Source: Pseudomonadota bacterium | GTDB taxonomy: Bacteria > Pseudomonadota > Gammaproteobacteria > Steroidobacterales > Steroidobacteraceae | NCBI GenBank assembly: GCA_016704655.1 | Contig: JADIZR010000007.1 | Location: 1,348 to 65,347 of the forward strand | Length of the DNA stretch: 64,000 nt | Direction: 5' to 3' | Shown here: one piece after another, positions 1 to 35,986 of the stretch | Layout of the letters: every line of letters begins with the position of its first letter | Numbering within the stretch: position 1 is the first letter of the stretch | Program-made: the position numbers and the translations under genes | The notes under the pieces: model-generated | Told to the model about the DNA's origin: nothing | The model's database searches: none | The model's input: only the letters and a program-made list of their open reading frames with translations

Positions 1-80
1 TAGGCGGCCACGAGCCTGCGGGCCGTCGCCTGCGCATCCGAGCGCTTGCCCGACTCGAGTTGGAACGACGTCAGCGCCAT
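1..80 (-). CDS. partial CDS (5' end only), unknown product
   Basis: ATG at 80-78 on the minus strand overlaps the TGA of the upstream cytochrome gene (ATGA). It reads MALTSFQLESGKRSDAQATARRLVAA and runs off the window. Confidence 0.3.
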   Translation of the reverse strand, partial: MALTSFQLESGKRSDAQATARRLVAA

Positions 81-2257
81 CAGCAGGTCGCGATCGTAAG
101 GCCAGCGCTGGTGGCTTGCTGCAGGCGGCGGATCGATTCCTCCGCCTGCCCCGTCGAATGCAGCGCCACCGCGTAAACGTATGTGTAGCGCGCAGTCGCC
201 GGATCGAGTTCGACCGCACGCCGCAGCGACGACAGCGCGAGTTCCGTCTGCCGCAGTCGCACACGCGCGAGACCCAGCGCGTGGTGCAGCGTGGCGCTCG
301 CAGGCACGTGTTGCAGTCCCTGTTGCAGCATGTCGGCGGCTTCCTGATCACGGCCCTGCACACGCAGCGCGTCTGCCGCATTGACGTAAGCCGGCACGAA
401 CTCCGGGTCGAGCCGGACTGCCGCAGCGAACTGCTCCTGGGCGTCGCCGGTCTCGCCCAATGTCGCCCGGACCCCCCCGAGCGCAACGCGGGACTCCGGC
501 CGATCCGCGTTGTACTGCAGGGTGGCGACGTACTCCTGCAACGCGGTATCCCAGTGTGTTTGCAGTTCTTGCGGCAGCCGGTCCTGGCCGCCCGCCAGCG
601 ACCGCGCCGCCTCGATGCGAACGGCGCGCGTGGCATCGCCGAGCAGCGGCCCAAGAACCGCGGCGCGCGCTTCGGCGGGCATCACGTCGGCCAGCTGCAC
701 CGTTGCCAGTCGCACCAGCGGACTGGCGTCCTGCGACATGCGCTGCGCGAAGTCGCGCGTGAACTGGCCGCTGCCGGCGAGTCGCGCGAGCGCAGAGGCA
801 CGCACGATGGCGGGTTGCGCCGTGTCGCCAGCGACACCAGCGAGCCGATCCAGTGCGGACGGTTCGCCACCTTCTGCTGCGTGAAAGACCGACGCGAACG
901 TCTGGTAGCCCGTGGCGTCGCGGCCGAGCCAGTCGTGCACCGCTTTGGCCGCCCACTTCACATCGTGGTCGGTGTGGCACGCATTGCAGGCATTCGGCAC
1001 GCCGAGCGCCACGCTTTCATCGGGTCGTGGCACACGCATGCTGTGATCGCGCCGCGAATCGACCACCATGTACGTGGTCTGCGGCATGTGGCAGTTGACG
1101 CACTGCGCGCCCGCGGTGCCCGGCTCGTGACGATGGTGCGCGGCCACGTCGTACTTCTGGGCATCGTGACACTGCGCACAGACTGCATTACCGGGGGCTC
1201 GCAGCTTCTGCGTGTGCGGATCGTGGCAGTCGCTGCAGGTGACGCCGGCCGCGTGCATGCGGCTCTGCAGCCACGAGCCCCAGATGAACACCTCGTCCTG
1301 CTGCTGGCCATCGACGTGGTACAGCGCGGGCGTCAGCAGTGTAGGCAGGTAGTGATCGAGGAACGGACGCCCAGGCTCGTACCCTTCGGCGATCTGCGCA
1401 CGACGCGCATGACATTGGGCACAAACCTCGATTTCGCGCTCGGTCTGGCGCGGCTTGCTGCGCACGGGCTTTCCAGCCTCGTCGCGGACCCATGCCACGC
1501 CACGCCGCTCGTCGAGCTGCACGGTCAGCCCCTTGCCCGGCTCGTTGCCTTTGCGCTGGGCCCACTGCAGGTGTGCCGAGCCGGGCCCGTGACACGCTTC
1601 GCAACCCACCGCGATTTCGGCGTAAGTCGTCTTGAACGAATCTGCCGTGGCGTCGTAGCCCTTGCTCACCTGGGTCGAGTGGCAGTCGGCGCACATGAAG
1701 TTCCAGTTCTGCGACCGACGCGTCCAGTGGAGTTCGTCCGTGTGGTCGATCTGCTCGTCGGGATACTGGCGGAACCAGCGCTGGCCACCGTGTTCGCGCG
1801 GCCGCGCATCCCAGGTCACGGCGGCGGCCTGCAGGCGCCCGCCGGGCAGTTCGACCAGGTACTGCTGCAGAGGCGCGATGCCGAACGTGTACTTGACCTC
1901 GAAGTCCGCGAGCTGGCCGTCGGGTCCGTCCGTACGGATGAAATACTTGTCGTCGCGACGGAAGAAGCTGGTCTGGACGCCCTGGAAGCTGTAGGTCGCG
2001 TCGTTGAAGTTTCCCAGCACGGCCTGCTCGGTGGCGTGCTGCATGGCGACGGCGTGCTGCGAGGACTGCCAGGCTTTCGATTCGGCCGCGTGACATTGCG
2101 CGCAGGACTGCGAGCCGACGTAGGCAGCCGCGGCGGCGACTGTCTCGCTTACTGCCGTCGCCGCGGGCACGCCTGGCTGGCGCCCGGCGAGGAAATGCCA
2201 GGCAGCCAGGGCGAGCATCGCAATGCCCGCCAGCACGCTGATCCGCAACACGGTCAT
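80..2257 (-). CDS. octahaem c-type cytochrome with C-terminal TPR domain
   Basis: ORF 80..2362 (-). Likely start is at MTVLRISVLAGIAMLALAAW (membrane anchor or signal). Eight CXXCH motifs (CAQCH, CADCH, CEACH, CAQCH, CSDCH, CAQCH, CVNCH, CNACH) are followed by ~250 aa of TPR-like repeats. Confidence 0.85.
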   Translation of the reverse strand: MTVLRISVLAGIAMLALAAWHFLAGRQPGVPAATAVSETVAAAAAYVGSQSCAQCHAAESKAWQSSQHAVAMQHATEQAVLGNFNDATYSFQGVQTSFFRRDDKYFIRTDGPDGQLADFEVKYTFGIAPLQQYLVELPGGRLQAAAVTWDARPREHGGQRWFRQYPDEQIDHTDELHWTRRSQNWNFMCADCHSTQVSKGYDATADSFKTTYAEIAVGCEACHGPGSAHLQWAQRKGNEPGKGLTVQLDERRGVAWVRDEAGKPVRSKPRQTEREIEVCAQCHARRAQIAEGYEPGRPFLDHYLPTLLTPALYHVDGQQQDEVFIWGSWLQSRMHAAGVTCSDCHDPHTQKLRAPGNAVCAQCHDAQKYDVAAHHRHEPGTAGAQCVNCHMPQTTYMVVDSRRDHSMRVPRPDESVALGVPNACNACHTDHDVKWAAKAVHDWLGRDATGYQTFASVFHAAEGGEPSALDRLAGVAGDTAQPAIVRASALARLAGSGQFTRDFAQRMSQDASPLVRLATVQLADVMPAEARAAVLGPLLGDATRAVRIEAARSLAGGQDRLPQELQTHWDTALQEYVATLQYNADRPESRVALGGVRATLGETGDAQEQFAAAVRLDPEFVPAYVNAADALRVQGRDQEAADMLQQGLQHVPASATLHHALGLARVRLRQTELALSSLRRAVELDPATARYTYVYAVALHSTGQAEESIRRLQQATSAGLTIATC

Positions 2258-2288
2258 CCCGCTCGATCCATTTGCAAAGACTTCGGGC

Positions 2289-4359
2289 TCAGGGTGCTGG
2301 CGGGGCCGGGACGAACGCTTTCGTTCCAGGCATGATCTCGAAATACTGATCGAACTCGCCAAGGCTCCCCATCAGTTGCTTCAGCACGTCCGCATTGCCG
2401 GCCAGGCTGGCCCGGCCGGCGGCGGCCTGGGAGGCGAATGTCGCTTTGCGCATCATGATCGGCTCGAGGTCCGCGCGGTTGATCGTGATGGTGAGGTCCG
2501 CGTCCTGCGCCTGGTACCCCTGGATGTTCGTCAGCGTCGCATGGCTGAGTTCGAGCACATGCTGTTCACCGTTGTCGGGCGTCACGAGGTTGATCCTGAA
2601 GGCCAGCCCGTCCGCCTTGCGGCTGTCGAGCAGGATACCCAGGTAGTCGAGCCACAGTTCCGTCGTCATGGCGCGCACGGTGTCCGGCGAAGCCGACTGC
2701 GGCAGCAGGCCGCTCGGGATGCCCGACCGCAGTTCATGCGCAGCGGCGAGGAAGCTGTTGCGCAGGCTCGAGCTTTCCTTCTGGTAGCCCACCTGTTCGA
2801 AAGCGTCGGCGAGCAGGTTCCTGGCGGCCTGGTTTGGCGGGCTGCGCGAACACGAGCTTGTTCAGCAGCTCGATCGCCAGCCGATACTCGCCGGCCGCGT
2901 ACAGTTCGCGGGATCGCGCGACGATCTTGTCGGCACCTCCCATCATTTCGACGTACAGCGGCGCGGAATCCCGCGGCGAGGTCGGCACGAGCGTGGCCGG
3001 ATTGCCGTCCCAGTAACCGAGGTAGCGATTGATGACCGCACGGCTGTTGTGTTCTTCCGACCCGTGGTAACTGCGCGCTGCCCAATCCTGCTGCAGGCTG
3101 GCGGGCAGGCGGTAAACATTCTGGATCTCGTTGATCGTCACGCCCTGGTTCGCGAAGTGCAGCACGTCGTTGTTCAGGTTCGCGTACGCGTCGCGCTGTG
3201 TGCGCATGACTTCCTGGATGCGGGCGTTGCCCCAGCGGGGCCAGGTGTGCGCTGCAAACATCACCTCGGCCTGCGGGCCGAAGCGGTACAGGGCCGCGTT
3301 GATGTATTTCGACCATTGCAGCGCATCGCGGACGAGCGCTCCGCGCAGCGTGTAGATGTTGTGGATCGTGGCCGTGATGTTCTCCGCGGCCCAGAACGCC
3401 TTGAACTGCGGGAACCAGGTATTCATTTCGGCCGGCGCTTCGGTGCCCGGCGTGTTCTGGAACACCATCGTCACGCCATCGACGACGATTTCCTCTATGT
3501 CTTTGGCTACGAGCCGCGTAGGTGCGATCAGGCCCGTGGTACCCGAGGAGGCCCGCTTGCCGATGGCCTGGTCGACATGGCCGAACGGACTGGACGGCAG
3601 CAGCATGCCGTACTGGTACATCGCACGACGGATCATCGCGTTGCCGGCGTAGACATTCTCCGAGATGGCCGCCTCCATGAAGCCGACGGGCGCGATGACC
3701 TGCACCTTGCCCGCCTTGACGTCGGCCTCTTCGATCACGCCGCGCACACCGCCGAAATGGTCGATGTGCGAGTGCGAGTAAACGACTGCCACGACGGGAC
3801 GGGCGCCAAGTTGCTCATTGGCAAATGCGAGCGCCGCGGCGGCAGTTTCCTGCGAGACGAGCGGATCGAAGACGATCCAGCCGGAATCGCCCTTGACGAG
3901 GGTGATGTTGGAGAGGTCGAAGCCGCGCACCTGCCAGATTCGGCCGGGCACGACTTCAAAGAGTCCGTACTGCGCATTGAGCACGGCCTGCCGCTGCAGC
4001 GACGGGTGGATGCTGTCGAAGTCCTCCTTTGTGTCGAGGAACGCGTAGCGGCCGAAATTCCAGGCTGGTGTGCCTCGCGCGGTCTTGATTTCGGTGTACG
4101 TGGGCGCCGCGACGAACCCTCGCTTCGACTCCTCGAAGTCCCGCTTGTCCTCGAACGGCAGCGACGATCGCGCCATGCGCTGCAACGCCACCGTCGCCTG
4201 CGAGGGCGGCTGTGCCTGCGGGTGAACGTGTGCGCTGGGCACAGGATTTCCCACCGCCCCAGTGTCACGGGCTCCCGCATTCAGTGGAGCGCACGCGCCC
4301 CAGACTGTGAGTACCAGCAAAGTCTTGAGACTGTCGAATCCAGCCATGCCACTCTCCAC
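2289..4359 (-). pseudogene. MBL-fold alkyl/aryl-sulfatase (SdsA1/Bds1 type) interrupted by a 1-nt frameshift
   Basis: ORF 2734..4359 has a signal peptide and the MBL motif HSHIDHFGG, and ends ...LNKLVFAQPAKP. The reading continues in another frame as [28 protein letters not shown]... (ORF 2289..2792, SCP2-like C-terminal domain). Dropping one base of the TTT run at 2834-2836 restores a single ~690-aa ORF. Confidence 0.8.
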
Positions 4360-22383: not shown

Positions 22384-23737
22384 GTGCGAACTCACTCGAT
22401 CCGCCGGCATATGCTCACGCTGCTGCTACTCACGCTCACCGGCACGTGGCTGGCGTCTGCGGCCCTGACTTACCGCGAAGCGCATCGGGGCATCGATGCC
22501 TTGCTCGACGCACATCTGGCCCAGGCCGCGCGGATGCTGGTGGCGCAGGCGGGCCACGAACTCGAGGAACTCGACTTCGATGAGAATTCGACGCCCGCCG
22601 GACTTCCGCACCAAGGTTGCCTTCCAGGTGCGCGAGGCGGATGGGACGCTCATTCTTCGCTCAGCCAACGCCCCGACGACGCCGTTCGCCGGGCCGGTCA
22701 GCGGTTTCAGCGAAGCTGTGTTCGGTGACATTTTCTGGCGCGTGTATTCGGCAACCGAAGCCGCGCAGGGCGTGGTCGTGCACGTGGCGGAAGACCACGC
22801 AACGCGCGAACGGATCGCGCGACGCGTCGCCCTGAGCGCACTCGTCCCACAGCTCGTCGCACTGCCCCTGCTCGGGCTCGCGATCTGGTGGGTCGTTGGT
22901 CGTTCGCTGCGTCCGTTACGGCGGCTGGCGGAGCAACTCGCCCACCGCAGCCCCGACGATGTTCGGCCGCTGGCCGCGGGACCGATGCCCGTCGAGTTGA
23001 CGAGTCTCGCCGAACGGCTCGAGGAACTCCTGTCGCGGGTTCGTGACTCGCTCGATTCAGAACGACGGTTTACCTCGCATGCTGCCCATGAATTGCGTAC
23101 GCCGGTCTCTGCAATGCGCGCGCAGGCGGAGGTGGCGTTGGCAACCATTGACCCTGACGTCCGCGACGCGGCACTGCGTCATGGCATCGAGGCCTGCGAT
23201 CGAATGACACGGCTCGTGACGCAGCTGATGCAGCTTGCCCGTGTGGACGAAGCCGGTCACCTTGCAAGTGCGACTTCGTGCGAACTGCGTGCGATTGCGG
23301 AACGTGTGCTGGCGGACAGCGCGCCGGCAGCAATGCAGGATGGAAATTCGGTAGCGCTGGAGGCGTCGGATCCCGGGCGCGTTCTTGGCGACGGCGCATT
23401 GCTCGAGGCGCTGGTGCGTAACCTGGTCGACAACGCACTTCAACATGGCGGACCACACGGCGAGGTACGGGTGGGGCTGGTGCAGCATGACCGCCAGATC
23501 CGGCTCACCGTCGAGGACACGGGACCCGGTGTGACACCGGAAACACTCGAACGACTTGGCCGACGTTTTTACCGCGCGGCTGAAGCGACGGCCACGGGCA
23601 GCGGACTGGGGCTATCGATCGTCAAGCGGATCACGGAGTTGCACGGCGGCTGCGTGAGCTTTCGCAATGGCGATGCCGACCGTGGGCTGCGGGTCGAGGT
23701 CACGATCCCAATGCAGGGCTGCGAGCGTTCGAATTAG
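22384..23737 (+). pseudogene. sensor histidine kinase (QseC/PmrB-like) split by a 1-nt frameshift
   Basis: The N-terminal TM and sensor part (ORF 22384..22728, ...AQAGHELEELDFDE) continues in the +1 frame as FRTKVAFQVREADGTLILRSANAP... It includes the H-box FTSHAAHELRTPV and an HATPase domain (ORF 22496..23737). The frame change lies within ~22585-22606. Confidence 0.8.
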
Positions 23738-25755
23738 CTCGATCGGATGCGTGCCGCAACGGCGTCAAAGCCGCGCGCGGCTGCCGCATCGGCTGCGGCA
23801 ATCCCGTCACGGTTGCGCAGTGTCTTCTTCGCACCCGCCTGCAGCAACAGGTCGACCACGTCGCCCGCGCCTGCCTGACTCGCCAGGATCAGCGCGGTAT
23901 CGCCGAACGTGTTCTGCGCATCCAGCCCAACTCGCAATGCGACCAGCCTGCGCACGATCACGGCGTGGTTGCCGCGAGCCGCGAGCATCAGAAGTGTGTC
24001 GCCCGAGCGGCTGAGTGCCTGCACCTCGGCGCCTGCACGCAGCAGCTTGTCGAATGCCGCGTCGTTGCCGCGCGCCGCCGCGCAGGCGATGGGCGTAACG
24101 CCGTCGGCGGCCGCCGCATTCACATTGGCTCCGGCACCCAGCAGCAGCGCAAGGACCGCGGCGTCATCGCGGCACGCAGCGTGCCAAAGCGCGGTGTACC
24201 CGGTGGCATCTGTCGTTTCAGGACTCGCACCCGATCGCAGCAACAGCGACACCATGGCCGCATCGCCTCGCTGCGTCGCGAGGACCAACGACGCGTCATC
24301 GCCCTTGCCCGTGTCGGCTCTGGCTCCGTGCGCCAGCAACACCTGCACGATGCCTGCATTACCCCGGCGAACCGCGGTAGTGAAAGGCGCGCCGTCGCTG
24401 GCGCCATGCTCGTTCGGATTGGCACCGCGCTCGAGCAGCATCCGCACGATGTCCTTGCGTCCGTGACTGACGGCCACGCCCAGCGGTGTGTGGCCCGCGC
24501 GATCCGGGCGCGTCGGCGACGCGCCTGCTGCGAGCAGCACACCGACGCTGGCGGACGAAGACGCGGCGATGGCGACCTGCAGTGCTGGCTGGCCAGCGGC
24601 CGTCGTAGCCTCCGGGTCGCCGCCCCGGCCGAGCACCGATTTCAGCATGGCCGGATCGGTGCGACTTGCTGCGAGCGCCACGTCCGGCCAACCGGCATAG
24701 GCATCGCCTGCCGCAGCGCGAAGAATTGGGCCAGCCGACCTTGGGCCGGGTCCGGCGCCCGTAGTGCGCCTGCGCGCCGGTTGTGCGCCGTGCTGGACCA
24801 GGAAGCCGGTGACCGCGTCCTGTCTTGATTGCACCGAGTAATCCACGGCGCTCCAGCCGCCCGCATTACGCAACTTTGGGTCAAGGCCCGCGGCCACCAG
24901 GCGCTCGGACTGTGTGACGCGGCCACGGCGCGCCGCGTAGAGCAGAGCCGAGTTCCCGAGCGCATCCACCGCGGCAATGTCGGGTTTCGACAGCATCAGC
25001 ACTTCCAGGGCGTCCGCGCGCTCGGCCGTCGCGGCCAGCATCAAGGGTGTGATTCCCTGCGCGTCGATCGCATCGACTCGGGCGTCGTGTGCAACCAGCC
25101 AGCGCACCGATTCTGCAGCGCCCGACTCGGCTGCGTGATGCAGCACCGAACGACGGAATGCGTCGCTGGCATCTTCCGGCAGTAGCGGCCAGAGCGCGGC
25201 CAGCGTGTCGACGTCACCGCGGCGCACAGCTGCGATGGTCATCGACAAGGTCACTGCGGGTTCGGTTGCAAGGACGCGAGGATCCACTTGCAGTGGCAAC
25301 TGGCCTGCCTGCAGCAGGCGCGCCGCATCGGCGTGCCCAGCCGCCGCGGCCGTGTCGAGCCAGGTCCGTGCCGCTGATTCGTTTGCAGGCGAGTCGTACG
25401 CCGCAAGCGCTGCCAGTGCATACGCCGCGCGTGGCTCGCCCTTGGCTGCCGCGGCCTCGAAGAGAGTCCGCGCACGTTGCGAGTCCTCGCCGACGCCGAG
25501 ACCGGCCAGGTACAGGGTGCCCAACAGGTATTGCGCGCGTGAATCGCCGGCCAGCGGATCGGTCGCGAGCCGCCCGGCTGCATCCGCGAATTGCTTCAGA
25601 CGCAGCGCGCTCTTGGCCGGCTCGAGCAGGTCCGGCGCCGCGAACTTTGATGGAGTTGCGGCAACTGCCTGCACTGCGCCCAACGCACCGAACGAACACA
25701 GGAGCAGGGTGGCCAGCGCGGCGGCGCGAGCAGCTGAAGGGTCATGCCGTCCCAT
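23734..25755 (-). CDS. secreted Sel1-repeat plus ankyrin-repeat protein
   Basis: Signal peptide MGRHDPSAARAAALATLLLCSFGALGAVQAVAA. Sel1-like repeats (AQYLLGTLYLAGLGVGEDSQRARTLFEAAA) are followed by ~12 ankyrin repeats (G.T.L..AA..G....V..LL..GA). Confidence 0.8.
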   Translation of the reverse strand: MGRHDPSAARAAALATLLLCSFGALGAVQAVAATPSKFAAPDLLEPAKSALRLKQFADAAGRLATDPLAGDSRAQYLLGTLYLAGLGVGEDSQRARTLFEAAAAKGEPRAAYALAALAAYDSPANESAARTWLDTAAAAGHADAARLLQAGQLPLQVDPRVLATEPAVTLSMTIAAVRRGDVDTLAALWPLLPEDASDAFRRSVLHHAAESGAAESVRWLVAHDARVDAIDAQGITPLMLAATAERADALEVLMLSKPDIAAVDALGNSALLYAARRGRVTQSERLVAAGLDPKLRNAGGWSAVDYSVQSRQDAVTGFLVQHGAQPARRRTTGAGPGPRSAGPILRAAAGDAYAGWPDVALAASRTDPAMLKSVLGRGGDPEATTAAGQPALQVAIAASSSASVGVLLAAGASPTRPDRAGHTPLGVAVSHGRKDIVRMLLERGANPNEHGASDGAPFTTAVRRGNAGIVQVLLAHGARADTGKGDDASLVLATQRGDAAMVSLLLRSGASPETTDATGYTALWHAACRDDAAVLALLLGAGANVNAAAADGVTPIACAAARGNDAAFDKLLRAGAEVQALSRSGDTLLMLAARGNHAVIVRRLVALRVGLDAQNTFGDTALILASQAGAGDVVDLLLQAGAKKTLRNRDGIAAADAAAARGFDAVAARIRSS

Positions 25756-27051
25756 ATTTCGTCTCCACGTGAATCCCGACTCGCCGCAGGAAGTCGGAGG
25801 GCAGGATGCCGCCGGCGCTGACGATCACCGCGTCGTTCGGCAGAATCAGGTGACCGTCCTGGCTGCGCAGCAGAACCCGCTCCTGCTCGATGCGCTCGAC
25901 CTTTGACTGCAGCAGCAGTTGCAACTGTCCGGCGCGTTCGGCAGCGGCGATCCGGTCGCGGTTGCGGGGCTTGGCACGCGTGAACGCGTCGCCACGATAG
26001 GAGAGTGTGACCTGGCCGCCCGCTTCCGCGACGCTGGCAGCCGCCTCCAGGGCGCTGTCACCGCCACCCACGACCAGGACGCGCTGTCCGCGGTACTGCT
26101 CCGGGTCGATCAACCGGTAGACGACTTTGGGCAAGTCCTCGCCTGTCACGTCGAGCTTGCGTGGCGTGCCGCGCCGGCCGATCGCCAGCAGTACTTTCGC
26201 TGCCCGGTATTCCGCGAGTGAGGTCCGAACGATGAAGCCTTGCGCACCATCGCGATCGACGCTCTCGACGCGCTCACGATACCGCATGCTGCCGGCCACC
26301 CCGGTCTTGCGTTCGATATCCTGCCAGAACGCAAGCAGGTCTTCCTTGGAGGTCTGGCGAAAGCTGACCTTGCCCACCAATGGAATTTCTGCCGGTTGCG
26401 TCATCACGAGCTTGGCCCGCGGATACTGGAAGACGCTGCCGCCAAGACTCTCCTGTTCGATCGTCACGAATTGCATCTTGTGCGACTTCGCGGCAAGGCT
26501 GGCCGAAAACCCTGCGGGACCCGCACCCACGATCACGAGATCCAGTTGCCCTGGGATGGCTGTGCGCAGCTTGCGATGGATCGCGTCGACCGCCTGCCTG
26601 CCCTGCGCCAGCGCGTTGCGAATGAGGCCCATTCCCCCCAGTTCCCCCGCAACAAAGAGCCCCGGCACGGTCGACTCGAACTCCGGGCTCAGCAATGGAA
26701 TCTCCACGCCACGGCGTTCCGTGCCGAAAACAAGCGTGATCGCGTCCGCAGGACACGCGGCACGGCACGCACCGTGCCCGATGCAATCCGTCGGACTCAC
26801 CAGGTGCGCCTTGCCGTCGATCAGCCCAAGCACATGGTGTTCCGGTTGTTCCGGACAGGCTTTCACGCACGATCCGCACCCGATGCAACGGACGGGATCG
26901 ATCACGGGATGCAGGGAAGCGGGTCGATCAAGCCCGCGGCGACCGACTGCTCCCGCACGGTGCGGCTCGCATCCTCGTGTCGTCTACGCCGGACGAGGTA
27001 CCAGCCCCATATCAGTAAGAGTGGCAGCAGGTAGACGGCGAGCAACGACAT
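25742..27051 (-). CDS. membrane-anchored 2x[4Fe-4S] ferredoxin-domain / FAD-NAD(P)-binding oxidoreductase; N-terminal anchor is in another frame
   Basis: ORF 25742..26905 has CIGCGSCVKACPE and CIGHGACRAACP clusters, then VIVGAGPAGFSASLAAK and a thioredoxin-reductase-like fold. The ATG 27051 frame upstream encodes MSLLAVYLLPLLLIWGWYLVRRRRHE...AAGLIDP and shifts by -1 near GGG 26921-26923 into ASLHPVIDPVRCIGCG. Alternatively the gene simply starts at GTG 26905. Confidence 0.7.
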
Positions 27052-27256: not shown

Positions 27257-27898
27257 ATGCAGACGAGAAATGCCGCGCTGATCGCGCTGGCGGGTTTTGC
27301 ACTGGGAGTGTTCGTCGGCAAGGGACCGACCGTATTCGAAACTGACAGCACGACCGACACGCTCGAGCCCGTTACCGGGATGGCTTCGGTGCCGGTCGGC
27401 CATCCGCGCCTTGCAGAACGCGGTCTCGGCGATGTCGTGATGACGACATTACAGATGCGCGCCGCGCCTGCTGCCAATGCGTCGGCGATGGTGCCAGGCG
27501 CTGCTGCGCGTGCCAGATCGACGGACCTGATCGCGCAGGCCGACGACCTCCGGCGCCAACGAAGATCCGGCGAAGCCGTCGAGGCCTACCGTCGCGCTGC
27601 GGCCTCGGGCCGCATGAACGCGGATTCCTGGGCTGACTACGCCGATGCACTGGCTTCGGCCGGATCGAGCCTCAAGGGAGCGCCCGCGGATGCGCTGGCG
27701 CAGGCGCTCGCGCTCGACCCGCGGCATCCCAAGGCTTTATGGCTCAAAGCCAGCCTCGAGCACGAGGAACACCACTACCGCGACGCCGTCAGCACGTGGC
27801 GCAACCTGCTGGCCGTGGTGCCAGCCAATTCGTCCGACGCCCGCATCATCGAAGCGAACATCGCCGAAGCGTCGCGACTTGCCGCCGGCCAGGGCTGA
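27257..27898 (+). CDS. membrane-anchored TPR protein resembling the C-terminal (apocytochrome chaperone) part of CcmI/CycH/NrfG
   Basis: TM anchor MQTRNAALIALAGFALGVFVG. C-terminal region is ALALDPRHPKALWLKASLEHEEHHYRDAVSTWRNLLAVVPANSSDARIIEANIAEA. Confidence 0.55.
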   Translation: MQTRNAALIALAGFALGVFVGKGPTVFETDSTTDTLEPVTGMASVPVGHPRLAERGLGDVVMTTLQMRAAPAANASAMVPGAAARARSTDLIAQADDLRRQRRSGEAVEAYRRAAASGRMNADSWADYADALASAGSSLKGAPADALAQALALDPRHPKALWLKASLEHEEHHYRDAVSTWRNLLAVVPANSSDARIIEANIAEASRLAAGQG

Positions 27899-28872: not shown

Positions 28873-28890
28873 CTGGACGGAGTCGCCCGC

Positions 28891-30456
28891 ATGCCCCGCT
28901 GGCACAGCGCCTGCCGACTCCTGTTCGCGATCCTGGGCCTGACGATGTCACCGTTGAGCGCCCGAGCGGCGAACCTCGAGACGTTGCTGATGCCCGGGCC
29001 GGTCATCGCGGGTCACGCGAAATACGAACAGGAGTGCTCGCGCTGCCACGATCGCGCGGATCGTTCGCGGCAGGCGGTCCTCTGCCGCACTTGTCATGAG
29101 CCCGTTGCCGCCGATATTGCGCAACACAAAGGATTCCATGGTCGATTGCGCGGAGCAGAGGCCGCCCAGTGCGGCGCCTGCCACACCGAGCACAAGGGCC
29201 GGCCGGCCGACATCGTCAAGCTCCAGCCGGCTTCGTTCCCGCATGCCCAGACGGACTTTCCGCTGCAGGGAGCACACGCGACAGTAGCGTGCACGGCTTG
29301 CCACCAGGAAGGCCGCAAACATCGCGAAGCGGCGTCCGCGTGCGTCGAGTGTCACAAGCAGGACGACCTGCACGAGGGCAAGCTTGGCCGCGATTGCTCC
29401 AGCTGCCACGACGCCGGAGGCTGGTCACGCGTGCGGTTTGATCACGCAAAGACCCGGTTCGCGTTGACCGGCAAACATGTGCAGGCGACCTGTGCGTCCT
29501 GCCACCTGGGCAACCGGTACAAGGACACCCCAACCCAGTGCGCTGCCTGCCACGCGCCTGATGACGTCCACGGTGGCGCGCGCGGGGCCGGCTGCGCCGA
29601 CTGTCACCAGACGACCGGTTGGACCGGCACCAGGTACGACCACCTGAAGACCAGCGGATTTGCGCTCACGGGCGCGCACTCCTCGCTCGATTGCAGGACG
29701 TGTCACAAGACGTCGAATTTCAAGGACCCGTTGCCGAGGGACTGCGCGGGTTGCCACCGCAGCGACGATCCGCACGCCACCCGCTTCGGTGCAGGCTGCG
29801 AGAAGTGCCATGCCGCAAGCGGCTGGACGCCTTCGAGTTTCGATCACACCCGCGATGGCAAGTTCGAGCTGCGCGGAGCGCACGAGAAGCTGAACTGCCA
29901 TGTCTGCCACACCGGGGTAATCGCCAGCCAGAAGCTCGGCACGGAGTGTGCCGGATGCCACCGGGCGGATGACGTGCATGCGGGCAACCTGGACACCGAC
30001 TGCGCGCAGTGTCACGGCGTGGAGACGTGGCGCGGGCATCTGCAGTTCGATCACGACTTTTCGACGTACCCGCTCGTGGGGCTCCACGTCGCGGTTCCCT
30101 GCTTTGCGTGTCATCGCTCAACGTCGTTCAAGGACGCACGGCAGACGTGTGTCGACTGCCACGAGGCGGACGATCGTCACAAGGGCTCACTCGGCCGGGA
30201 CTGCGAAACATGCCATTCGGTCAACGGCTGGAACCTGTGGCAGTTCGATCACGGCAAATCCACCAAGTTCGCCCTGACGGGTGCGCACTCGAAGGTGGCC
30301 TGCGCAGGCTGTCACAAGCAGCCCGCACACCTGGCGAAGCTGTCGCAGGACTGCGCGGCGTGCCATGCCGAGGACGACGTGCACCTCGGTCAGTACGGTC
30401 GGCAATGCCAGCGCTGCCACGTGACCACGACTTTCAAGGCTGCGCGGCTGCAGTGA
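28891..30456 (+). CDS. 21-haem periplasmic c-type cytochrome built from seven c7-like triheme modules
   Basis: Signal peptide plus 21 CXXCH motifs. The recurring module is FDH..T.F.L.G.H....C..CH - ~11 aa - C..CH..DD.H.G..G..C..CH. Confidence 0.9.
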   Translation: MPRWHSACRLLFAILGLTMSPLSARAANLETLLMPGPVIAGHAKYEQECSRCHDRADRSRQAVLCRTCHEPVAADIAQHKGFHGRLRGAEAAQCGACHTEHKGRPADIVKLQPASFPHAQTDFPLQGAHATVACTACHQEGRKHREAASACVECHKQDDLHEGKLGRDCSSCHDAGGWSRVRFDHAKTRFALTGKHVQATCASCHLGNRYKDTPTQCAACHAPDDVHGGARGAGCADCHQTTGWTGTRYDHLKTSGFALTGAHSSLDCRTCHKTSNFKDPLPRDCAGCHRSDDPHATRFGAGCEKCHAASGWTPSSFDHTRDGKFELRGAHEKLNCHVCHTGVIASQKLGTECAGCHRADDVHAGNLDTDCAQCHGVETWRGHLQFDHDFSTYPLVGLHVAVPCFACHRSTSFKDARQTCVDCHEADDRHKGSLGRDCETCHSVNGWNLWQFDHGKSTKFALTGAHSKVACAGCHKQPAHLAKLSQDCAACHAEDDVHLGQYGRQCQRCHVTTTFKAARLQ

Positions 30457-30469
30457 TGGGAAGGCAACC

Positions 30470-33400
30470 ATGAAGCTGCAATGGATCTGCCGTGCACTGC
30501 TGCCCTTGCTGCTGCTGGCTGCGGGCACCGTGTCAGCCCAGGTGACCGGGCGCAACTTTGACCACCTGACGACAGGATTCGAGCTTACTGGCGCGCATCG
30601 TCTGCAGGCCTGCGAGAGCTGCCACGTCGACGCCGTGTTCGCCGGCACCCCACGAGTGTGCGCGGCGTGCCATGCACAGAGGTCGCGCATCGGAGCGACA
30701 CCGAAGCCGTCGGCTCACGTGGCCTCCACGGACAACTGCGGCGCGTGCCACACCACCTCGGGCTGGATACCGGCAGGACGATTCGATCACCTGGAAGCGC
30801 GCGGTGATTGCGCAACCTGCCATGACGGGCTGCAGGCGCAGGGCAAGCCGGCGGGCCACCTCACGACCAGCCAGGAGTGCTCGAGTTGCCACAGCAATAC
30901 GGCCTGGAGTCCCGCGAAATACAACCACTCCGGCATCACCGGCGTGTGCGCCTCCTGCCACGACGGCGTCAGAGCAACGGGGAAGCGGGCCACTCATCCG
31001 CAGACGACGAGCAGCTGCGAGTCGTGCCACACGATCGCGGCCTGGGCCCCGATCAGCCGCATTGACCACACGCAGGTCAGCGGCTCCTGCGCGTCGTGCC
31101 ATGACGGCACGTCTGCGACGCGCAAGCACGCATTGCATGTACCGACTACCGCGACGTGCGACACCTGCCACGTGACAGTCGCGTGGCAGCCAGCCAGCTT
31201 CGCTCACGACGGTATCGTCGACGGCTGCGCCAGCTGCCATGACGGGGCGCGGGCCACCGGCACCGGACCGCGTCACATCAAGGCGACGAACACCTGCGTG
31301 GCCTGTCATTCGATGACGGCATGGCAGCCGGCAACGCGCGTGGACCACGCCAACGTGCTGGGCAGCTGCTCGACCTGCCACGACGGACTCGCGGCCAGCG
31401 GACAGCCGGCCAATCACATTCCCACGTCGGCGGAATGCGACAGCTGCCATGCGACCAACGCCTGGACTCCCGCCAGGTTCGATCACACCGGGATCGCCAC
31501 CAACTGCGCCTCCTGTCACGACGGCACCCGCGCCACAGGCAAGAGTCCGACCCACATCAATACCTCGACGACCTGCGAGTCATGTCACGTCATCGCGGCC
31601 TGGCAACCCGCGTCGCGTGTCGATCATGCCCAGGTGCTCGGCAGCTGCGTCTCCTGTCACGATGGCACCGTTGCAACCGGCAAGAACGCCACGCACATCC
31701 TGTCCGACAATGCCTGCGAGAGTTGCCACACGACCGTCCAGTGGCAGCCCGCCAACTTTTCACACACCGGGCTGACGGAAACCTGCTCAGCCTGCCACGA
31801 CGGTACTCGGGCCACCGGCAAGAGCACGACGCACATCATCTCGAGTACCTCCTGTGGCGCCTGTCACGCGACGTTCTCGTGGCGCCCGGTCACGCAGGTC
31901 GACCACACACAGGTGAGCGGCAGCTGCGCCTCGTGCCACAACGGCACGACGGCCACCGGCAAGAACGCGGGTCACATCGCCTCCAGCACGGCCTGCGCTG
32001 CCTGCCATGCCACGCTGGCATGGAAGCCCGTCACAAGCGTGGATCATGCGCAGGTCACCGGCGCGTGCTTCTCCTGCCACGATGGCACCCTGGCCACCGG
32101 CAAGCCGTCCGCTCACATTCCGAGCGACAACTCCTGCGACAACTGCCATTCGCCGCTGGCATGGCAGCCAGCGCGCTTCGACCACACGGGCATCACGGTC
32201 AACTGCGCCAACTGTCACGACGGCATCAAGTCTCAGGGCAAGCCGACGACGCACATAACCAGCAGCAGCACGTGCGAGTCCTGTCACGCCGTGGCGGCCT
32301 GGAAGCCGGCAACGAGCGTCGACCACACCCAGGTGACGGGAACCTGCGCCAGTTGCCACGACGGCGCCAGGGCGACCGGCAAGGGCGTTAACCACATCCC
32401 GACCAGCGGCGAATGCGGCACGTGCCACGCCACGATCGCGTGGCAGCCGGCAACGTTCTCGCACACTGGTATTACCAGCGGTTGTGCCAGCTGCCACGAC
32501 GGGATCAAGGCGCCGGGCAAAAACGCCACGCACCTGTTCACGTCATCGACCTGCGAAGCCTGCCACTCCGTGACGACCTGGAAGCCCGCGACCCGCGTCG
32601 ACCACGCGCAGGTGCAGGGTTCGTGTTCGAACTGCCACAACAACATCAAGGCGACGGGCAAACCGGCGACGCACGTCGTTACGACGTCCGAATGCAGCAT
32701 GTGCCACGGCACGCAGGCCTGGAAGCCAGCGACGGGCTTCACGCACGACGGCATCACGGCCGCATGCGCGACCTGCCACAACGGCGTGAACGCGACGGGC
32801 AAGAACACCAGTCACCTGCAGACGAGCAATACCTGCGAGTCCTGCCATACCCCCACTGGCTGGAAGCCGGCGGCGAAGGTGGACCACACACAGGTCATCG
32901 GCACCTGCTTCTCGTGCCACAACGGCACGCTTGCGACCGGCAAGAACTCGGGTCACATCGCAAGTGACAACGCGTGCGACAGCTGCCACCAGTCGACGGC
33001 GTGGAAGCCGACGATCCGGGTCGATCACGCGCACGTCACCGGAACGTGTTCCAGCTGCCACGATGGCGTGCAGGCGGCGGGCAAGCCCACCACGCACCTG
33101 CCGACGACAGCCGAGTGCGGCAGCTGTCATTCAACCCTGGCCTGGACACCGGCGAAGGTGGATCACACCAGCATCACGAACTGCAAGGGTTGCCACAACG
33201 GCTCCAGCGCGACGGGCCCGTCGACCAGCCACATGACCTTCCCGGTCAACAGCTTCGACTGCAACCAGTGCCACACCACGACGGCCTGGTCGCCGAACAC
33301 GTTCAAGCACCGCGTGGGTGGCGGCTACCCGGGCGATCATCGTGTGGCGCTGACCTGCAGGAGCTGTCACACGACCGGCACGGATGCCGCCACCTGGCGC

Positions 33401-33610
33401 ACGCCGGCCTACAAACCCGACTGCGCAGGTTGCCATTCCAGCAATTTCAAGCCCGATCCGCACACCAAGTACGGCAACGTGAAGTACACCGTCAGTGAAC
33501 TGCGTAACTGCTCGGGAGCGTGCCACACCTATACGGACTCCACGCTCACGAAGATCTTGAAGAGCCGCGCCGGTCCGGAACATCGCATCACGGACACGGA
33601 ACTTCACTGA
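30470..33610 (+). CDS. giant multihaem c-type cytochrome: 41 CXXCH plus one CX3CH
   Basis: Sec signal MKLQWICRALLPLLLLAAGTVSAQ. There are 41 CXXCH motifs at ~23-aa spacing plus a terminal CSGACH. Consensus repeat is C.SCHDG..ATGK...H..T...C..CH...AW.PA..VDH..V.G. Confidence 0.9.
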   Translation: MKLQWICRALLPLLLLAAGTVSAQVTGRNFDHLTTGFELTGAHRLQACESCHVDAVFAGTPRVCAACHAQRSRIGATPKPSAHVASTDNCGACHTTSGWIPAGRFDHLEARGDCATCHDGLQAQGKPAGHLTTSQECSSCHSNTAWSPAKYNHSGITGVCASCHDGVRATGKRATHPQTTSSCESCHTIAAWAPISRIDHTQVSGSCASCHDGTSATRKHALHVPTTATCDTCHVTVAWQPASFAHDGIVDGCASCHDGARATGTGPRHIKATNTCVACHSMTAWQPATRVDHANVLGSCSTCHDGLAASGQPANHIPTSAECDSCHATNAWTPARFDHTGIATNCASCHDGTRATGKSPTHINTSTTCESCHVIAAWQPASRVDHAQVLGSCVSCHDGTVATGKNATHILSDNACESCHTTVQWQPANFSHTGLTETCSACHDGTRATGKSTTHIISSTSCGACHATFSWRPVTQVDHTQVSGSCASCHNGTTATGKNAGHIASSTACAACHATLAWKPVTSVDHAQVTGACFSCHDGTLATGKPSAHIPSDNSCDNCHSPLAWQPARFDHTGITVNCANCHDGIKSQGKPTTHITSSSTCESCHAVAAWKPATSVDHTQVTGTCASCHDGARATGKGVNHIPTSGECGTCHATIAWQPATFSHTGITSGCASCHDGIKAPGKNATHLFTSSTCEACHSVTTWKPATRVDHAQVQGSCSNCHNNIKATGKPATHVVTTSECSMCHGTQAWKPATGFTHDGITAACATCHNGVNATGKNTSHLQTSNTCESCHTPTGWKPAAKVDHTQVIGTCFSCHNGTLATGKNSGHIASDNACDSCHQSTAWKPTIRVDHAHVTGTCSSCHDGVQAAGKPTTHLPTTAECGSCHSTLAWTPAKVDHTSITNCKGCHNGSSATGPSTSHMTFPVNSFDCNQCHTTTAWSPNTFKHRVGGGYPGDHRVALTCRSCHTTGTDAATWRTPAYKPDCAGCHSSNFKPDPHTKYGNVKYTVSELRNCSGACHTYTDSTLTKILKSRAGPEHRITDTELH
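30690..33240 (+). repeat. in-frame tandem repeats (~138-141 bp, ~18 copies) inside the 41-haem cytochrome gene
   Basis: Periodic TGC..TGCCACGACGGC / GCCTGGCAGCC / GTCGA(C/T)CAC blocks. Copies are clearly diverged at the nucleotide level. VDH..V.G.C and F.HTGI...C subtypes partly alternate, giving a ~280-bp super-repeat. Confidence 0.85.
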
Positions 33611-35986
33611 TGCGCCCAGGTATTCGACTGCTGCTCGCCGCCAGCGCCGTCCTGGCCAACCTGGCGGCCACTCCGCTCCGGGCACAGGGCCGGATCGTCG
33701 AAGACGTCGTGGCGAGCGAGCAACGCGGCTACGTGTCCGTTACGCTGCTCTTCAGCTGTTCGATGCGCTACCTGTCGCACACGCCGGCTACCGATGGCGA
33801 AGCATTGCAGGTCCGCTTCTCGGCGGGCCCGGATTGTGGCCGGACATCTGCCTCGGAACCGCAGCCGCTGCTGGCCGGCGCGGCGGGTTTCGTGCGCTCG
33901 GTCGACGTCGTGCGACCGTTCGGCTCGGAGGTCCAGGTCCGGATCGGCTGGTCGAAGCCCGAAACGTTCGTGCTGACGCCTTCGATCGACGGGCGCCTGT
34001 TGCGAGTCAGGCTGCTGCGCACCGAGACACCGCAGGTTACGGTGCAGGAAATGCCCCAGGGCACCTCCACGTACGCCGTAAACCTGGCCTCGTCGACCAC
34101 CCCTCACACCCGATGCACTCGCAGCCGCCGCAAAGGTCGCGGGCACGCGCACCTACGTTTCGGCGACCGTCGTCGACGAGCAGCGCTGGTACCGCCTGCG
34201 GGCCGGGCCTTTCGTCAACGAGGCGGCAGCCAGGCAGGCACTGGCCAATTCGCGCAGCGAATTCCCGAAAGCCTGGATCGCGATTTCGGATGACGACACG
34301 CTGAACGAGATCGGCACTCCTTCGGGCGTGGCGACCGTGCGGTCAACCGCCCCGCAGGTCAACGCCTCGATGACGCCGGATGAAATCAAGGGAACCCTGG
34401 CCCAGGCCAAAGTTGCGTTCCGCCACAAGGATTACGCCACGGCGATCCCGCTGCTGACGCAGATCACGCAGCAACCCGAGTTTCCGCAACGGGCCGAAGC
34501 GCAGGAAATGCTCGCTCTTGCGCGCGAACGCAGCGGCCAGGTCGCTCACGCCAAGGCCGAATACGAGGACTATCTGCAGCGGTATCCAACCGGCGACGGC
34601 CCCACGCGCGTGCGCAAGCGGCTGCAGGCCCTGGCCTGGGCCAGCCGCCCTGGTCGCAGTGGCGCGGCAGATAGCGACCATGACGAATCCCCGTGGCGAG
34701 TCTACGGCGGCTTTTCGCAGATTTATCGCCAGGACCAGAGTCACCTCGAGAGCGGTCTCGCCGTCAGCGACCAGACGACGCAGAACGCCTTGCTCAGCGA
34801 CGTGAGTCTCGTTGCGCGTCGCCACGGCGAACGCTTCGACTTCACCACACGCGCGAGCGCGGGTTACAGCTACGACATGCTTGCCGACGGGCCGGGAAGC
34901 CAATCTCGAGTGTCGATGTTGTTTGCCGAGTTCGCCGACCGCATTGCAGGCTGGTACGCCCGCCTCGGCCGCCAGGCCGGCGGCTCGGCCGGACTCATGG
35001 GAACGTTCGACGGGATGCAGGCGGGGTACCAGCTGTGGCCCCGGCTGCGCGTCAATGGCTTCTTCGGCTTCCCGGTGGATTCGACACGCGAAGGGCCGGA
35101 CAGCGAGCGCAGGTTCGTCGGCATCTCTGCTGACGTCGGCACGCTCGCGAACGCCTGGGATCTCTCGTTCTATGCCGTCGACCAGCAGTATTCCGGCGTG
35201 ACGGACCGGCAGGCCGTCGGCACCGAGGTGCGGTACTTCCGGCCCGGCATCACGCTGGTCGGACTCGCGGATTTCGACATCCACTACAGCACGCTCAATA
35301 CCGTGCTGCTGCTGGGCACGTTCGCGCTGCCTGCGCGCTGGACGCTGAACCTGAACCTCGATCACCGCAAGAGTCCAGGCCTGTCGACGCGCAATGCCAT
35401 GATTGGGCAGCCAGTGCGCCGGTTCGACGAACTGTTCGGCCTGTACACACCCCAGGAGATCGAGCAACTTGCGCTCGACCGCACGTCGGAGTCGACGATG
35501 TACTCGGCGGGCGTATCGCGACCCTTCGGCGAGCGATGGCAGTGGTCGCTCGATGCGTCGACCATGACTCTCGGCTCGACGCGCGAATCGGGCGGGGTGC
35601 CCGCCACGCCGTCGTCGGGAACGGACACCGCGGTCTCGACGCAGGCCATGGGCTACGGATTGTTCGGCCGCGGCGACGTCACGTCACTGGGCCTGCAGTA
35701 CCAGACGGGCGAGAGCGCGCAGATGCTTTCGCTCGGCGTCGGCGCCCAGCTGCCTGTCGGCGAGCGTTGGCGCGTCGGCCCCCGGCTGCGCCTGGATCAA
35801 CGCAAGCTCGAGAGCGACCGGTCGACATCGCTCGTGTATTCACCGGCGCTGCGGGCGGAGATGCGCGGCAAGCACCTGACGTTCGAGGTGGAGGGCGGGG
35901 CCGAGTTCGGATCGCGCGACCTCGGCACGAGCTCCGAGGACACGTCGCGTTACTATTTCAGCCTTGGCTATCGCTATGACTTCTAG
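33610..35986 (+). CDS. outer-membrane protein: signal peptide, N-domain, SPOR domain, TPR-like region and beta-barrel; a single ORF only after correcting a 1-nt frameshift at ~34100
   Basis: ATG 33610 overlaps the TGA of the cytochrome gene. Frame 1 reads MRPGIRLLLAASAVLANLAATPLRAQG...STYAVNLASSTT, then turns Arg-rich. From the C4 run at 34100-34103 the +1 frame reads PLTPDALAAAAKVAGTRTYVSATVVDEQRWYRLRAGPFVNEAAARQALANSRSEFPKAWIA (SPOR-like). It runs without a stop into ORF 34328..35986, which has a TPR-like segment and then amphipathic beta strands ending YYFSLGYRYDF. Confidence 0.65.

Follow-up and report, generated by a model that had tools for sequence, protein, structure and literature searches.

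The PCC3 porin-cytochrome cluster, defined by He, Barco, Emerson & Roden (2017, Front Microbiol 8:1584, PMC5566968) and reported from Alpha-, Beta- and Gammaproteobacteria, consists of an inner-membrane protein (IMP) of ~300 aa with two WX3HX13H motifs and an SGXXG motif, a multihaem cytochrome (MHC), a larger second MHC and a beta-barrel porin. Its periplasmic MHC has a median haem number of 21, and a 21-haem member in Supplementary Figure 1 of that paper is made up of seven ~66-aa repeats; described members include Slit_1447 (Sideroxydans lithotrophicus ES-1), a 21-haem protein of the Riftia endosymbiont and a 24-haem protein of Leptothrix cholodnii SP-6 (PMC5566968). PCC3 is among the most widespread predicted extracellular-electron-transfer systems. 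In S. lithotrophicus ES-1 and Sideroxydans CL21 expression of its genes and proteins is modest and not tied to a particular substrate, and the literature on PCC3 reports no member purified or knocked out. Steroidobacteraceae were not found in the PCC3 text or supplements searched, including the text of the He et al. supplements.

Gene organisation and cluster membership

The locus described here lies in a stretch of 64,000 nt (the window) from a Steroidobacteraceae genome, and its features are collected in Table 1. The genes run in the PCC3 order of IMP, 21-haem MHC, large MHC and barrel; the IMP carries WX3HX13H at aa 121 and 298 and the SGXXG motif, as SGLFG, at aa 162, and the 41-haem gene starts 13 nt past the stop of the 21-haem gene. 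Judged by synteny, motifs and haem counts, with named references such as Slit_1447 set beside it by description, the 21-haem gene is the periplasmic MHC of a PCC3 cluster and an ordinary member of a known family. An indirect link to PCC3 members is provided by homologues from other families and classes that are 38–45% identical and share the synteny, and by a protein of Rubrivivax annotated as 'cytochrome c3 family protein'.

A first-pass annotation of this DNA had seen the gene in a different genomic background. That background is not unusual and the pairing of the two genes is not new, since both belong to PCC3, known from three proteobacterial classes since 2017 (PMC5566968), and nothing in the 21-haem gene itself is unexpected. 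The adjacent second haem polymer of different design that it had also reported is borne out by the 41 CXXCH motifs of the neighbour and their spacing of ~23 aa, but not by the N-terminus of that protein, which follows the same FDH..G.H....CxxCH..CxxCH grammar as the 21-haem protein; 67 of the 68 large partners at related loci begin in this way. No sign of recent horizontal transfer was seen, the GC content (0.64–0.67) and GC3 (0.75–0.84) of the genes matching the window.

Table 1. Features of the 21-haem cytochrome gene and its neighbourhood, in window positions.
Feature	Position	Strand	Basis
Sel1/ankyrin protein, divergently transcribed	23734..25755	-	Pfam
2x[4Fe-4S] flavoprotein, divergently transcribed	25742..26905	-	Pfam
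TPR protein resembling CcmH/CcmI, first gene of the operon	27257..27898	+	PF23914 34.6 bits, under cut-off
PCC3 inner-membrane protein (IMP), putative dihaem b carrier, 323 aa	27901..28872	+	motifs
Shine-Dalgarno GGAG, 8 nt 5' of ATG	28879..28882	+	direct sequence reading
21-haem cytochrome gene (521 aa; PCC3 periplasmic MHC)	28891..30456	+	ATG start; 41 orthologues
Sec signal peptide, aa 1-26, LSARA/ANLE, without lipobox	28891..28968	+	sequence reading; predicted cleavage site
Module 1, divergent N-terminal cap, haems 1-3, spacing 16/29, no FDH	28969..29184	+	Pfam and module tree
Module 2, haems 4-6	29185..29409	+	repeat pattern
Module 3, haems 7-9	29410..29607	+	repeat pattern; in two-module AF2 model, pLDDT 84.7
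Module 4, haems 10-12	29608..29811	+	repeat pattern; in two-module AF2 model, pLDDT 84.7
Module 5, haems 13-15	29812..30015	+	repeat pattern
Module 6, haems 16-18	30016..30216	+	repeat pattern
Module 7, haems 19-21	30217..30420	+	repeat pattern
Conserved C-terminal tail ([ST][FW]Kx[AV]R..) and stop	30421..30456	+	conservation; possible docking role
41-CXXCH large cytochrome (PCC3 'extracellular' MHC)	30470..33610	+	motif count
TPR and predicted outer-membrane barrel region, two ORFs (33520-34293, 34328-35986)	33520..35986	+	weak TPR matches; C-terminal ...YRYDF

Modular architecture and predicted haem ligation

The 21 CXXCH motifs claimed by the first-pass annotation are present, in the 521-aa product of exactly the ORF 28891-30456(+); in 20,000 shuffled versions of the sequence CXXCH appeared 0.32 times on average and at most 4 times. 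The protein has 24.8 aa per haem, and 42 of its 43 Cys lie inside CXXCH, the remaining one being in the signal peptide. Its three Met are the start residue, one in the signal peptide and M34. Across 41 orthologues all 21 CXXCH and exactly 21 further His are invariant and no conserved Met ligand was found, and because of this all 21 haems are probably bis-His. The orthologue alignment also shows an invariant mature N-terminus (E30-x-L32-x-M34-P35-G36) and a tail in which T514, F515, K516, A518 and R519 vary little or not at all; the tails are alike across loci, and a docking motif at this end is possible.

The modules are 66–75 aa long, and from haem 4 to haem 21 the motifs are spaced 16–17, 18 and 32–33 aa apart. 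The full pattern, F.H..G.H....CxxCH followed by CxxCH..D[DE].H and, seven residues on, CxxCH, occurs in six copies (modules 2–7, aa 116–510), so that of the seven pattern groups originally described six hold and the first, with its different spacing and no FDH, does not. The best Pfam match of this first module is the class III c3 family (PF02085, 30.6 bits, cut-off 22.9), ahead of c7 at 19.9 bits. In a tree of the modules, module 1 is a long-branch outgroup and the modules group by position rather than by species; the seven-module plan is therefore old and each position separately constrained.

Relationship to class III (c3/c7) domains

The layout had been likened to that of polymerised c7 domains of the GSU1996 type, a comparison that survives in part. 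In its favour, the whole protein matches Pfam PF14522 (c7) at 89.9 bits, above the cut-off of 24.8, and when the frame is shifted by one haem single units score 32.6, 26.6 and 24.4 bits over the full profile (PpcA, for comparison, scores 31.0); in the frame originally proposed single units reach 22.1, 18.9 and 19.6 bits, under the Pfam cut-off. The match is not specific to c7 architecture, because the neighbouring 41-haem protein scores higher still on PF14522 (168 bits). The stricter c7 model TIGR04257 (nanowire_3heme, cut-off 40 bits) gave no match on the 21-haem protein at E<=0.01, nor did a genome-wide search match the DNA of its gene, whereas the same search found a true c7-type gene elsewhere in the genome at 60.9 bits (G000:C12:6118-6336).

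Domain-wise alignment likewise gave a mixed result. A two-module profile (A3) matched 3OUQ, a hexahaem fragment of GSU1996, weakly though above noise (E 1.2e-4), with profile positions 52–119 aligned to 3OUQ_A residues 20–82, DDvH opposite HDIH and all three CXXCH lined up. Hmc gave the best profile matches in the PDB (E 8e-8 and 2.5e-5), and the shifted unit aligns with the N-terminal domain of Hmc, which we take to be a three-haem domain. Alignment of the module profiles to PpcA by hhalign reached only 47–53% probability in both frames and matched the CXXCH alone, a six-sequence module profile found generic multihaem matches only in the PDB (c7 at E 0.6–1), and a whole-protein phmmer search of the PDB returned nothing at E<=0.01.

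The predicted axial ligands run His(FDH), His(GxH), CxxCH, CxxCH, His(DDxH), CxxCH in each module, and no rotation of this order matches the c7 order of His, His, haem I, His, haem III, haem IV, the axial His of PpcA presumably being residues 17, 20 and 47 (the sequence itself was verified as 1OS6). A His-Met haem, one per domain, is a mark of GSU1996 domains, and none is predicted here. Structure prediction reached a pLDDT of 84.7 for two modules and was poor for the full-length protein modelled with 41 orthologues (pLDDT 58.7, pTM 0.29); Foldseek found nothing with the full-length model, and among the fold comparisons, none of which gave a significant match, the top match was the GSU1996 fragment 3OUE. 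Membership of the MtrA/DmsE family (TIGR03508, 18.6 bits against a cut-off of 192), of HmcA (NF045713, 38 bits against 400) and of NrfB (far under the NCBIfam cut-off) was considered and rejected. The profile matches support a polymer whose three-haem repeats are related to class III (c3/c7) domains; the label 'c7-like' is only partly supported.

Conservation and haem numbers in relatives

Relatives of the 21-haem protein are encoded in more than 572 species genomes. Of 151 genomes sampled from the same family 57 carry a relative, compared with 5 of 401 in the phylum-wide sample, and ~38% of sampled Steroidobacteraceae species carry the PCC3 cluster. Synteny was surveyed at the 80 best loci from related species genomes: the IMP, the 21-haem MHC and the large MHC are kept, in conserved order, at all 80. 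The large MHC follows the 21-haem gene in every one of these loci with downstream sequence and in four distant genomes, and the gene was thus never seen apart from the partner with which the first-pass annotation had paired it where sequence continues. The same gene order recurs around distant 21- and 24-haem homologues from other families and classes. The CcmI-like TPR gene precedes the cluster at 73 of the 80 loci, the FeS flavoprotein and the Sel1/ankyrin gene are both present at 72, and the TPR and barrel region lies downstream at 64–65, the remainder being cut by contig ends; the flavoprotein is also found near the cluster, at 57–59% identity, in two of the four distant genomes.

At the 80 loci 21 CXXCH were counted in every complete copy, with 22 read in two frames, lower counts coming only from copies cut by contig ends or frame-shifted. 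Among the 120 best homologues 102 have 21 haems and most others 24, 27, 30, 33 or 36; in other lineages the periplasmic MHC has 24 to 36 haems, mostly in steps of three. The large partner, counted in complete single-frame copies from relatives, has between 17 and 70.

Proposed role and alternative readings

The analysis shows which cluster this is, that haem sites and ligands are conserved, how the modules are arranged, that the length is constant and that synteny is kept; the localisation, rod shape, bridging role and contacts of the protein are inferred. We consider it likely that this PCC3 periplasmic MHC is a fixed, periplasm-spanning haem chain. Sec export and haem attachment would yield a mature protein of ~495 aa with 21 c-type haems, built of a c3-like N-terminal cap and six repeats of ~67 aa, each with three haems and of the class III (c3/c7) type. 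The haems would form a fixed, rod-like chain whose length roughly matches the width of the periplasm, some 20 nm at the about 1 nm per haem of GSU1996. One conserved end may contact the dihaem-b-like IMP encoded just upstream and the other may enter or meet the outer-membrane barrel, where electrons would be exchanged with the 41-haem cytochrome of variable length, the product of the next gene downstream; flow could be in either direction, serving metal oxidation or reduction. The division of labour suggested by the first-pass annotation agrees with the published PCC3 model in its periplasmic and distal parts; its 'shuttle' fares less well, a fixed bridge being likelier because the length of the 21-haem protein is invariant.

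The shuttle reading would make the protein a polymerised c7 of the GSU1996 type, a soluble electron store or carrier diffusing freely in the periplasm and attached at neither end. The PF14522 and 3OUQ matches and the top, if not significant, Foldseek match to 3OUE speak for it, and Hoover et al. raise a capacitor role as a possibility. Against these stand the TIGR04257 result, the ligand order, the PpcA alignments confined to CXXCH and the missing Met ligand. A diffusing protein would, moreover, give no reason for exactly 21 haems in every complete copy from 80 species or for invariant termini, and the IMP and barrel genes are invariably linked to the gene. We regard this reading as unlikely. 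A protein that is, like MtrA, mostly sheathed by the outer-membrane barrel and acts as the wire through that membrane, with small soluble carriers crossing the periplasm instead, is very unlikely: the analogy with MtrCAB, the weak match of the N-terminal cap to the C-terminal part of the DmsE/MtrA model and the small cytochromes of the genome, including a c7-type triheme protein, are outweighed by a score that marks no MtrA homologue, by 21 haems where crossing the outer membrane needs about half as many, by a co-transcribed IMP that suggests direct contact at the inner end, and by haem numbers that shift mostly by whole modules between lineages, which fits the tuning of a long span.

A more elaborate reading, which we hold to be improbable, takes the three-haem unit as a distinct, all-bis-His offshoot of c7 whose structural frame lies one haem off the repeat frame. 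The last unit of the 21-haem protein (H498 and haem 21) would then be incomplete in cis, and the N-terminus of the large partner, with the FDH grammar noted above, would supply the missing half in trans. If true, this would be inter-protein haem ligation, as in OmcS filaments, and the invariant 21 (elsewhere 24–36, mostly in whole modules) would be a ruler matched to the width of the periplasm.

An invariant 21 haems in the inner protein beside 17 to 70 in the outer one is what the fixed-bridge proposal predicts, with an inner protein that spans a constant distance and a partner whose length is not constrained. The host genome also has an MtrA/MtrC-type system (its MtrA, encoded elsewhere in the genome, scores 300.5 bits), and PCC3 is therefore not its only possible conduit. 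What is added here is a survey of PCC3 in soil Steroidobacteraceae, abundant heterotrophs in which neither respiration nor oxidation of metals is known. If the conduit works, more soil taxa than those now listed would be able to exchange electrons with minerals or humic matter.

Comparison with known systems

The decahaem cytochromes MtrA and MtoA (of MtrCAB and MtoAB) share with the 21-haem protein a proposed role as the periplasm-side partner of a barrel and an outer cytochrome, but they are not homologous to it at the family level and have half its haems. The 16-haem HmcA (1Z1N, 1H29, 1GWS), which gave the best PDB profile matches, is likewise a polymer of class III domains, although its family model is far from matched; Hmc is built mostly of four-haem c3 domains and serves sulfate respiration. 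With c7 cytochromes such as PpcA (1OS6) the modules have in common three CXXCH in about 70 aa, predicted bis-His ligation and, in the shifted frame, PF14522 scores of 24.4–32.6 bits; the missing TIGR04257 match, the different ligand order and the below-cut-off scores of units in the earlier frame set them apart.

GSU1996 of Geobacter sulfurreducens (3OV0, 3OUQ, 3OUE), with four c7-type domains, is also a linear three-haem class III polymer of high haem density, and its domain A is the part matched by the module profile. The 21-haem protein differs in having seven modules, each of ~67 aa and so shorter than GSU1996 domains, in its probably all-bis-His ligation, in an Asp (DDxH) in place of the first His of H-x2-H, in an extra FDH His after the first haem motif, and in its genomic context, and the two show no significant fold match.

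The closest likeness is to the PCC3 MHC itself, which has the same neighbours (an IMP with two WX3HX13H, a large second MHC and a barrel), the same 21 CXXCH at about 25 aa per haem in seven ~66-aa repeats, in agreement with Table 1 of Hoover et al., a Sec signal without lipobox, and 24- or 27-haem variants in other lineages. The differences lie in the surroundings: the host here is a soil Steroidobacteraceae MAG, and the cluster is accompanied, as in most of its relatives, by the FeS flavoprotein, the ankyrin gene and the CcmI-like TPR gene.

A cap-and-repeat cytochrome with 21 haems

The 21-haem cytochrome is encoded by a real ORF, with an ATG start preceded by GGAG at 8 nt, beginning 18 nt past the upstream stop and ending 13 nt before the next start (Table). 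Its 521-aa product carries 21 CXXCH motifs, whereas 20,000 shuffles of its own residues averaged 0.32 and never gave more than 4, and all of its cysteines lie in these motifs except one in the signal peptide, which is of the Sec type (LSARA/ANLE) and lacks a lipobox. The first-pass annotation had correctly recognised this ORF and had described it as seven tandem triheme modules. Six copies of the proposed pattern (F.H…G.H x4 CxxCH x11-13 CxxCH xxD[DE]xH x7 CxxCH) were indeed found at aa 116-510, with a strict CXXCH spacing of 16-17/18/32-33 from haem 4 on, but the first three-haem group has a spacing of 16/29, lacks FDH and possesses an additional histidine past its third motif, so that the protein consists of one cap and six repeats.

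Alignment of 41 orthologues (55-88% identity) showed that all 21 CXXCH motifs are invariant, as are exactly 21 histidines outside them (H42, 83, 101, 118, 129, 161, 185, 196, 227, 251, 263, 295, 319, 331, 363, 388, 399, 430, 454, 466 and 498), while no methionine was conserved at a possible ligand position in this alignment; this conservation would fit 21 bis-His haems. Motifs unrelated to haem binding are likewise invariant at both ends of the protein: the mature N-terminus has E30-x-L32-x-M34-P35-G36, and T-F-K-x-A-R lies close to the C-terminus.

Features of the PCC3 region and further cytochrome loci of the same genome (window coordinates unless a contig of the window's genome, G000, is named)
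Feature	Coordinates	Strand	Remarks
ORF with 8 CXXCH	80-2362	-	760 aa; CXXCH in N-terminal half, C-terminal half TPR-like
2x[4Fe-4S] + FAD/NAD(P)-type flavoprotein and Sel1/ankyrin protein	23734-26905	-	divergent from PCC3 operon
21-haem cytochrome	28891-30456	+
Large cytochrome, 41 CXXCH	30470-33610	+	1046 aa
Opening of large cytochrome	30470-30880	+	includes module FDH…GAH…CESCH…CAACH…SAH…CGACH
Region 3' of 41-haem gene	33520-35986	+	two ORFs in different frames, 33520-34293 and 34328-35986
Mtr-type system	G000:C4:120774-126432		outside the window
Small three-haem protein (L092)	G000:C12:6028-6687	-	TIGR04257 cut-off 40

Relationship of the repeats to cytochrome c7

The modules had also been called c7-like, in the manner of Geobacter GSU1996, and this holds in a broad sense only. 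The Pfam model PF14522 (c7 and related) matched five stretches of the protein with 89.9 bits, although it is unspecific and scores 168 bits on the 41-haem neighbour, and a two-module profile built from 150 sequences matched the 16-haem Hmc (1Z1N, E 8e-8; 1H29, E 2.5e-5) and the GSU1996 hexahaem fragment 3OUQ (E 1.2e-4). In the 3OUQ alignment, DDvH falls on GSU1996 HDIH, FDH on FDL and GxH on a Met-containing stretch before the second haem motif. The Pfam and PDB alignments share one frame, offset by one haem from the FDH-first repeat and running DDxH, x7, CxxCH (the last motif of one module), GW…FDH…GxH, CxxCH, CxxCH (motifs one and two of the module that follows). Single units in this shifted frame aligned along the full length of PF14522 with scores of 32.6, 26.6 and 24.4 bits, compared with 31.0 for PpcA, whereas in the FDH-first frame the matches were partial and below the 24.8 cut-off (22.1, 18.9 and 19.6 bits). 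The ligand count at the termini favours the FDH-first frame, in which modules 1 and 7 each contain as many invariant free histidines as haem motifs (three); in the shifted frame, H498 and haem 21 have no partners. Comparison with the PpcA sequence (1OS6) by hhalign gave ~50% probability in either frame.

Against strict membership, the NCBIfam c7 triheme model TIGR04257 did not match the 21-haem protein, while the genuine c7-type gene L092, which lies outside the window and was used as internal positive control, scored 60.9 bits; the product of this gene is a candidate soluble periplasmic carrier. Moreover, the linear order of free histidines and haem motifs in the module cannot be rotated into that of c7. 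From these sequence comparisons we place the repeats in the broad lineage of class III multihaem domains (c3/c7/Hmc/GSU1996); GSU1996 is a fair analogy for their design, but c7 or GSU1996 membership proper is not supported, two defining features failing.

Distribution, gene order and haem number

A pattern search of one genome per GTDB species revealed relatives in more than 572 species genomes, the best 80 of which, mostly of soil origin, comprised only Steroidobacteraceae and unclassified gammaproteobacterial MAGs. One copy was present in 57 of 151 sampled Steroidobacteraceae species genomes (25 of 40 genera), and an even sample across the phylum yielded a relative in only 5 of 401 genomes. 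All of the best 80 loci encode the inner-membrane protein, the 21-haem protein and the large cytochrome; the TPR gene occurs in 73 and the barrel region in 64-65, with absences largely at contig ends, and the divergently transcribed genes for the FeS flavoprotein and the ankyrin protein in 72 each. Homologues at 38-45% identity with 21 or 24 haems were found in four distant genomes (a gammaproteobacterium of another family, with 45% GC; two genomes from a further family; and one from another class), all retaining the order inner-membrane protein, multihaem cytochrome, large cytochrome, barrel. The proposed link to the downstream partner therefore stands, the partner being present across the loci surveyed.

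All complete copies in the 80 loci carried 21 CXXCH, with 22 read in two frames, and only copies cut by contig ends or frame-shifted had fewer. Among the 120 best database homologues, 102 had 21 motifs and the other complete ones 24, 27, 30, 33 or 36, apart from two that had 35 and 38. In the 80 loci, partners complete in one frame contained 17, 19, 25, 28, 29, 31, 35, 39, 41, 45, 47, 51, 55, 57, 60, 61 or 70 haems. In six loci from long-read MAGs (L004, L012, L013, L016, L040, L047) the large cytochrome gene is split into several overlapping frames, which points to frequent frameshift errors, or to genuine decay, in a highly repetitive gene.

The two cytochromes had been taken for different haem-wire designs. 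They are not independent, however: they match each other at E 4e-8, and the 41-haem protein opens, directly past its signal peptide, with one full module of the 21-haem type, followed by two-haem repeats of ~46 aa. Of 68 related loci, 67 share this opening, regardless of how many haems the partner has in total (17-70); that it completes the 21-haem chain at the interface is speculative and rather improbable.

In a tree built from every module of 16 proteins, modules at the same position clustered together throughout the Steroidobacteraceae (all m1, all m2 and likewise for the rest), with module 1 as a long-branch outgroup, and m1, m2, m3, m6 and m7 of a distant 21-haem homologue fell in the matching groups. 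The seven-module plan is therefore old, each position being under its own constraint, and neither recent amplification nor concerted evolution was apparent in the tree. In 24-haem proteins, the first, second and final modules match their 21-haem counterparts, so that the additional unit is internal.

Proposed role and other candidate electron routes

The best-supported model is a refinement of PCC3 in which the 21-haem protein would act as a fixed bridge and not as a shuttle that diffuses, because its haem number is constant against a highly variable partner and shifts between lineages mostly by whole modules, its modules are conserved position by position, its termini are invariant, and it is tightly co-transcribed with the inner-membrane partner and the barrel. 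Haem spacing in GSU1996 is ~1 nm per haem, at which 21 haems would span ~20 nm, on the order of the Gram-negative periplasm. Hoover et al. 2023 also made this point.

The FeS flavoprotein adjoins the PCC3 cluster in two of the four distant genomes (L096 and L097, of other families or classes) at 57-59% identity; it may be an unrecognised PCC3 accessory, possibly for cytoplasmic electron input. The PCC3 inner-membrane protein has a NOX/FRE-like histidine pattern (He et al., PMC5566968), and together the two would, conjecturally, fit electron export from NAD(P)H. Expression of PCC3 in Sideroxydans is moderate and not substrate-specific.

The Mtr-type system includes a 317-aa DmsE/MtrA-family decahaem protein (TIGR03508, 300.5 bits; cut-off 192) and two ORFs (756 and ~790 aa) for lipoprotein-like decahaem proteins, one scoring 484.6 bits on TIGR03507 (OmcA/MtrC), with more 8- and 10-CXXCH ORFs nearby. 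With PCC3, this Steroidobacteraceae bacterium therefore has two different candidate outer-membrane electron conduits.

Comparison with described PCC3 systems

The neighbourhood encodes, in order, a CcmI-like TPR protein, a 323-aa membrane protein, the two cytochromes and a TPR + barrel-like region ending in C-terminal YRYDF. Relatives match both parts of the region 3' of the 41-haem gene in the same order, and a frameshift artefact is described for the corresponding PCC3 region of L. ochracea (He et al., PMC5566968). The same authors report median haem numbers of 34 (extracellular) and 21 (periplasmic), and their RADAR analysis divides the 21-haem protein of a Riftia endosymbiont into seven repeats of ~66 aa and the 24-haem Leptothrix cholodnii protein into eight (Supplementary Figure 1, PMC5566968); Gallionellaceae periplasmic subunits carry 21, 24 or 27 motifs (Hoover et al. 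2023). The gene, its repeat structure and the proposed role split of the two cytochromes are thus already published, to which our length-invariance survey and frame analysis are small additions. The 21-haem gene is an ordinary member of the described family of predicted PCC3 conduits. The PCC3 membrane protein is defined by two WX3HX13H motifs and SGXXG (He et al., PMC5566968), and that of the window bears exactly these, at aa 121 and 298 and at aa 162, respectively.
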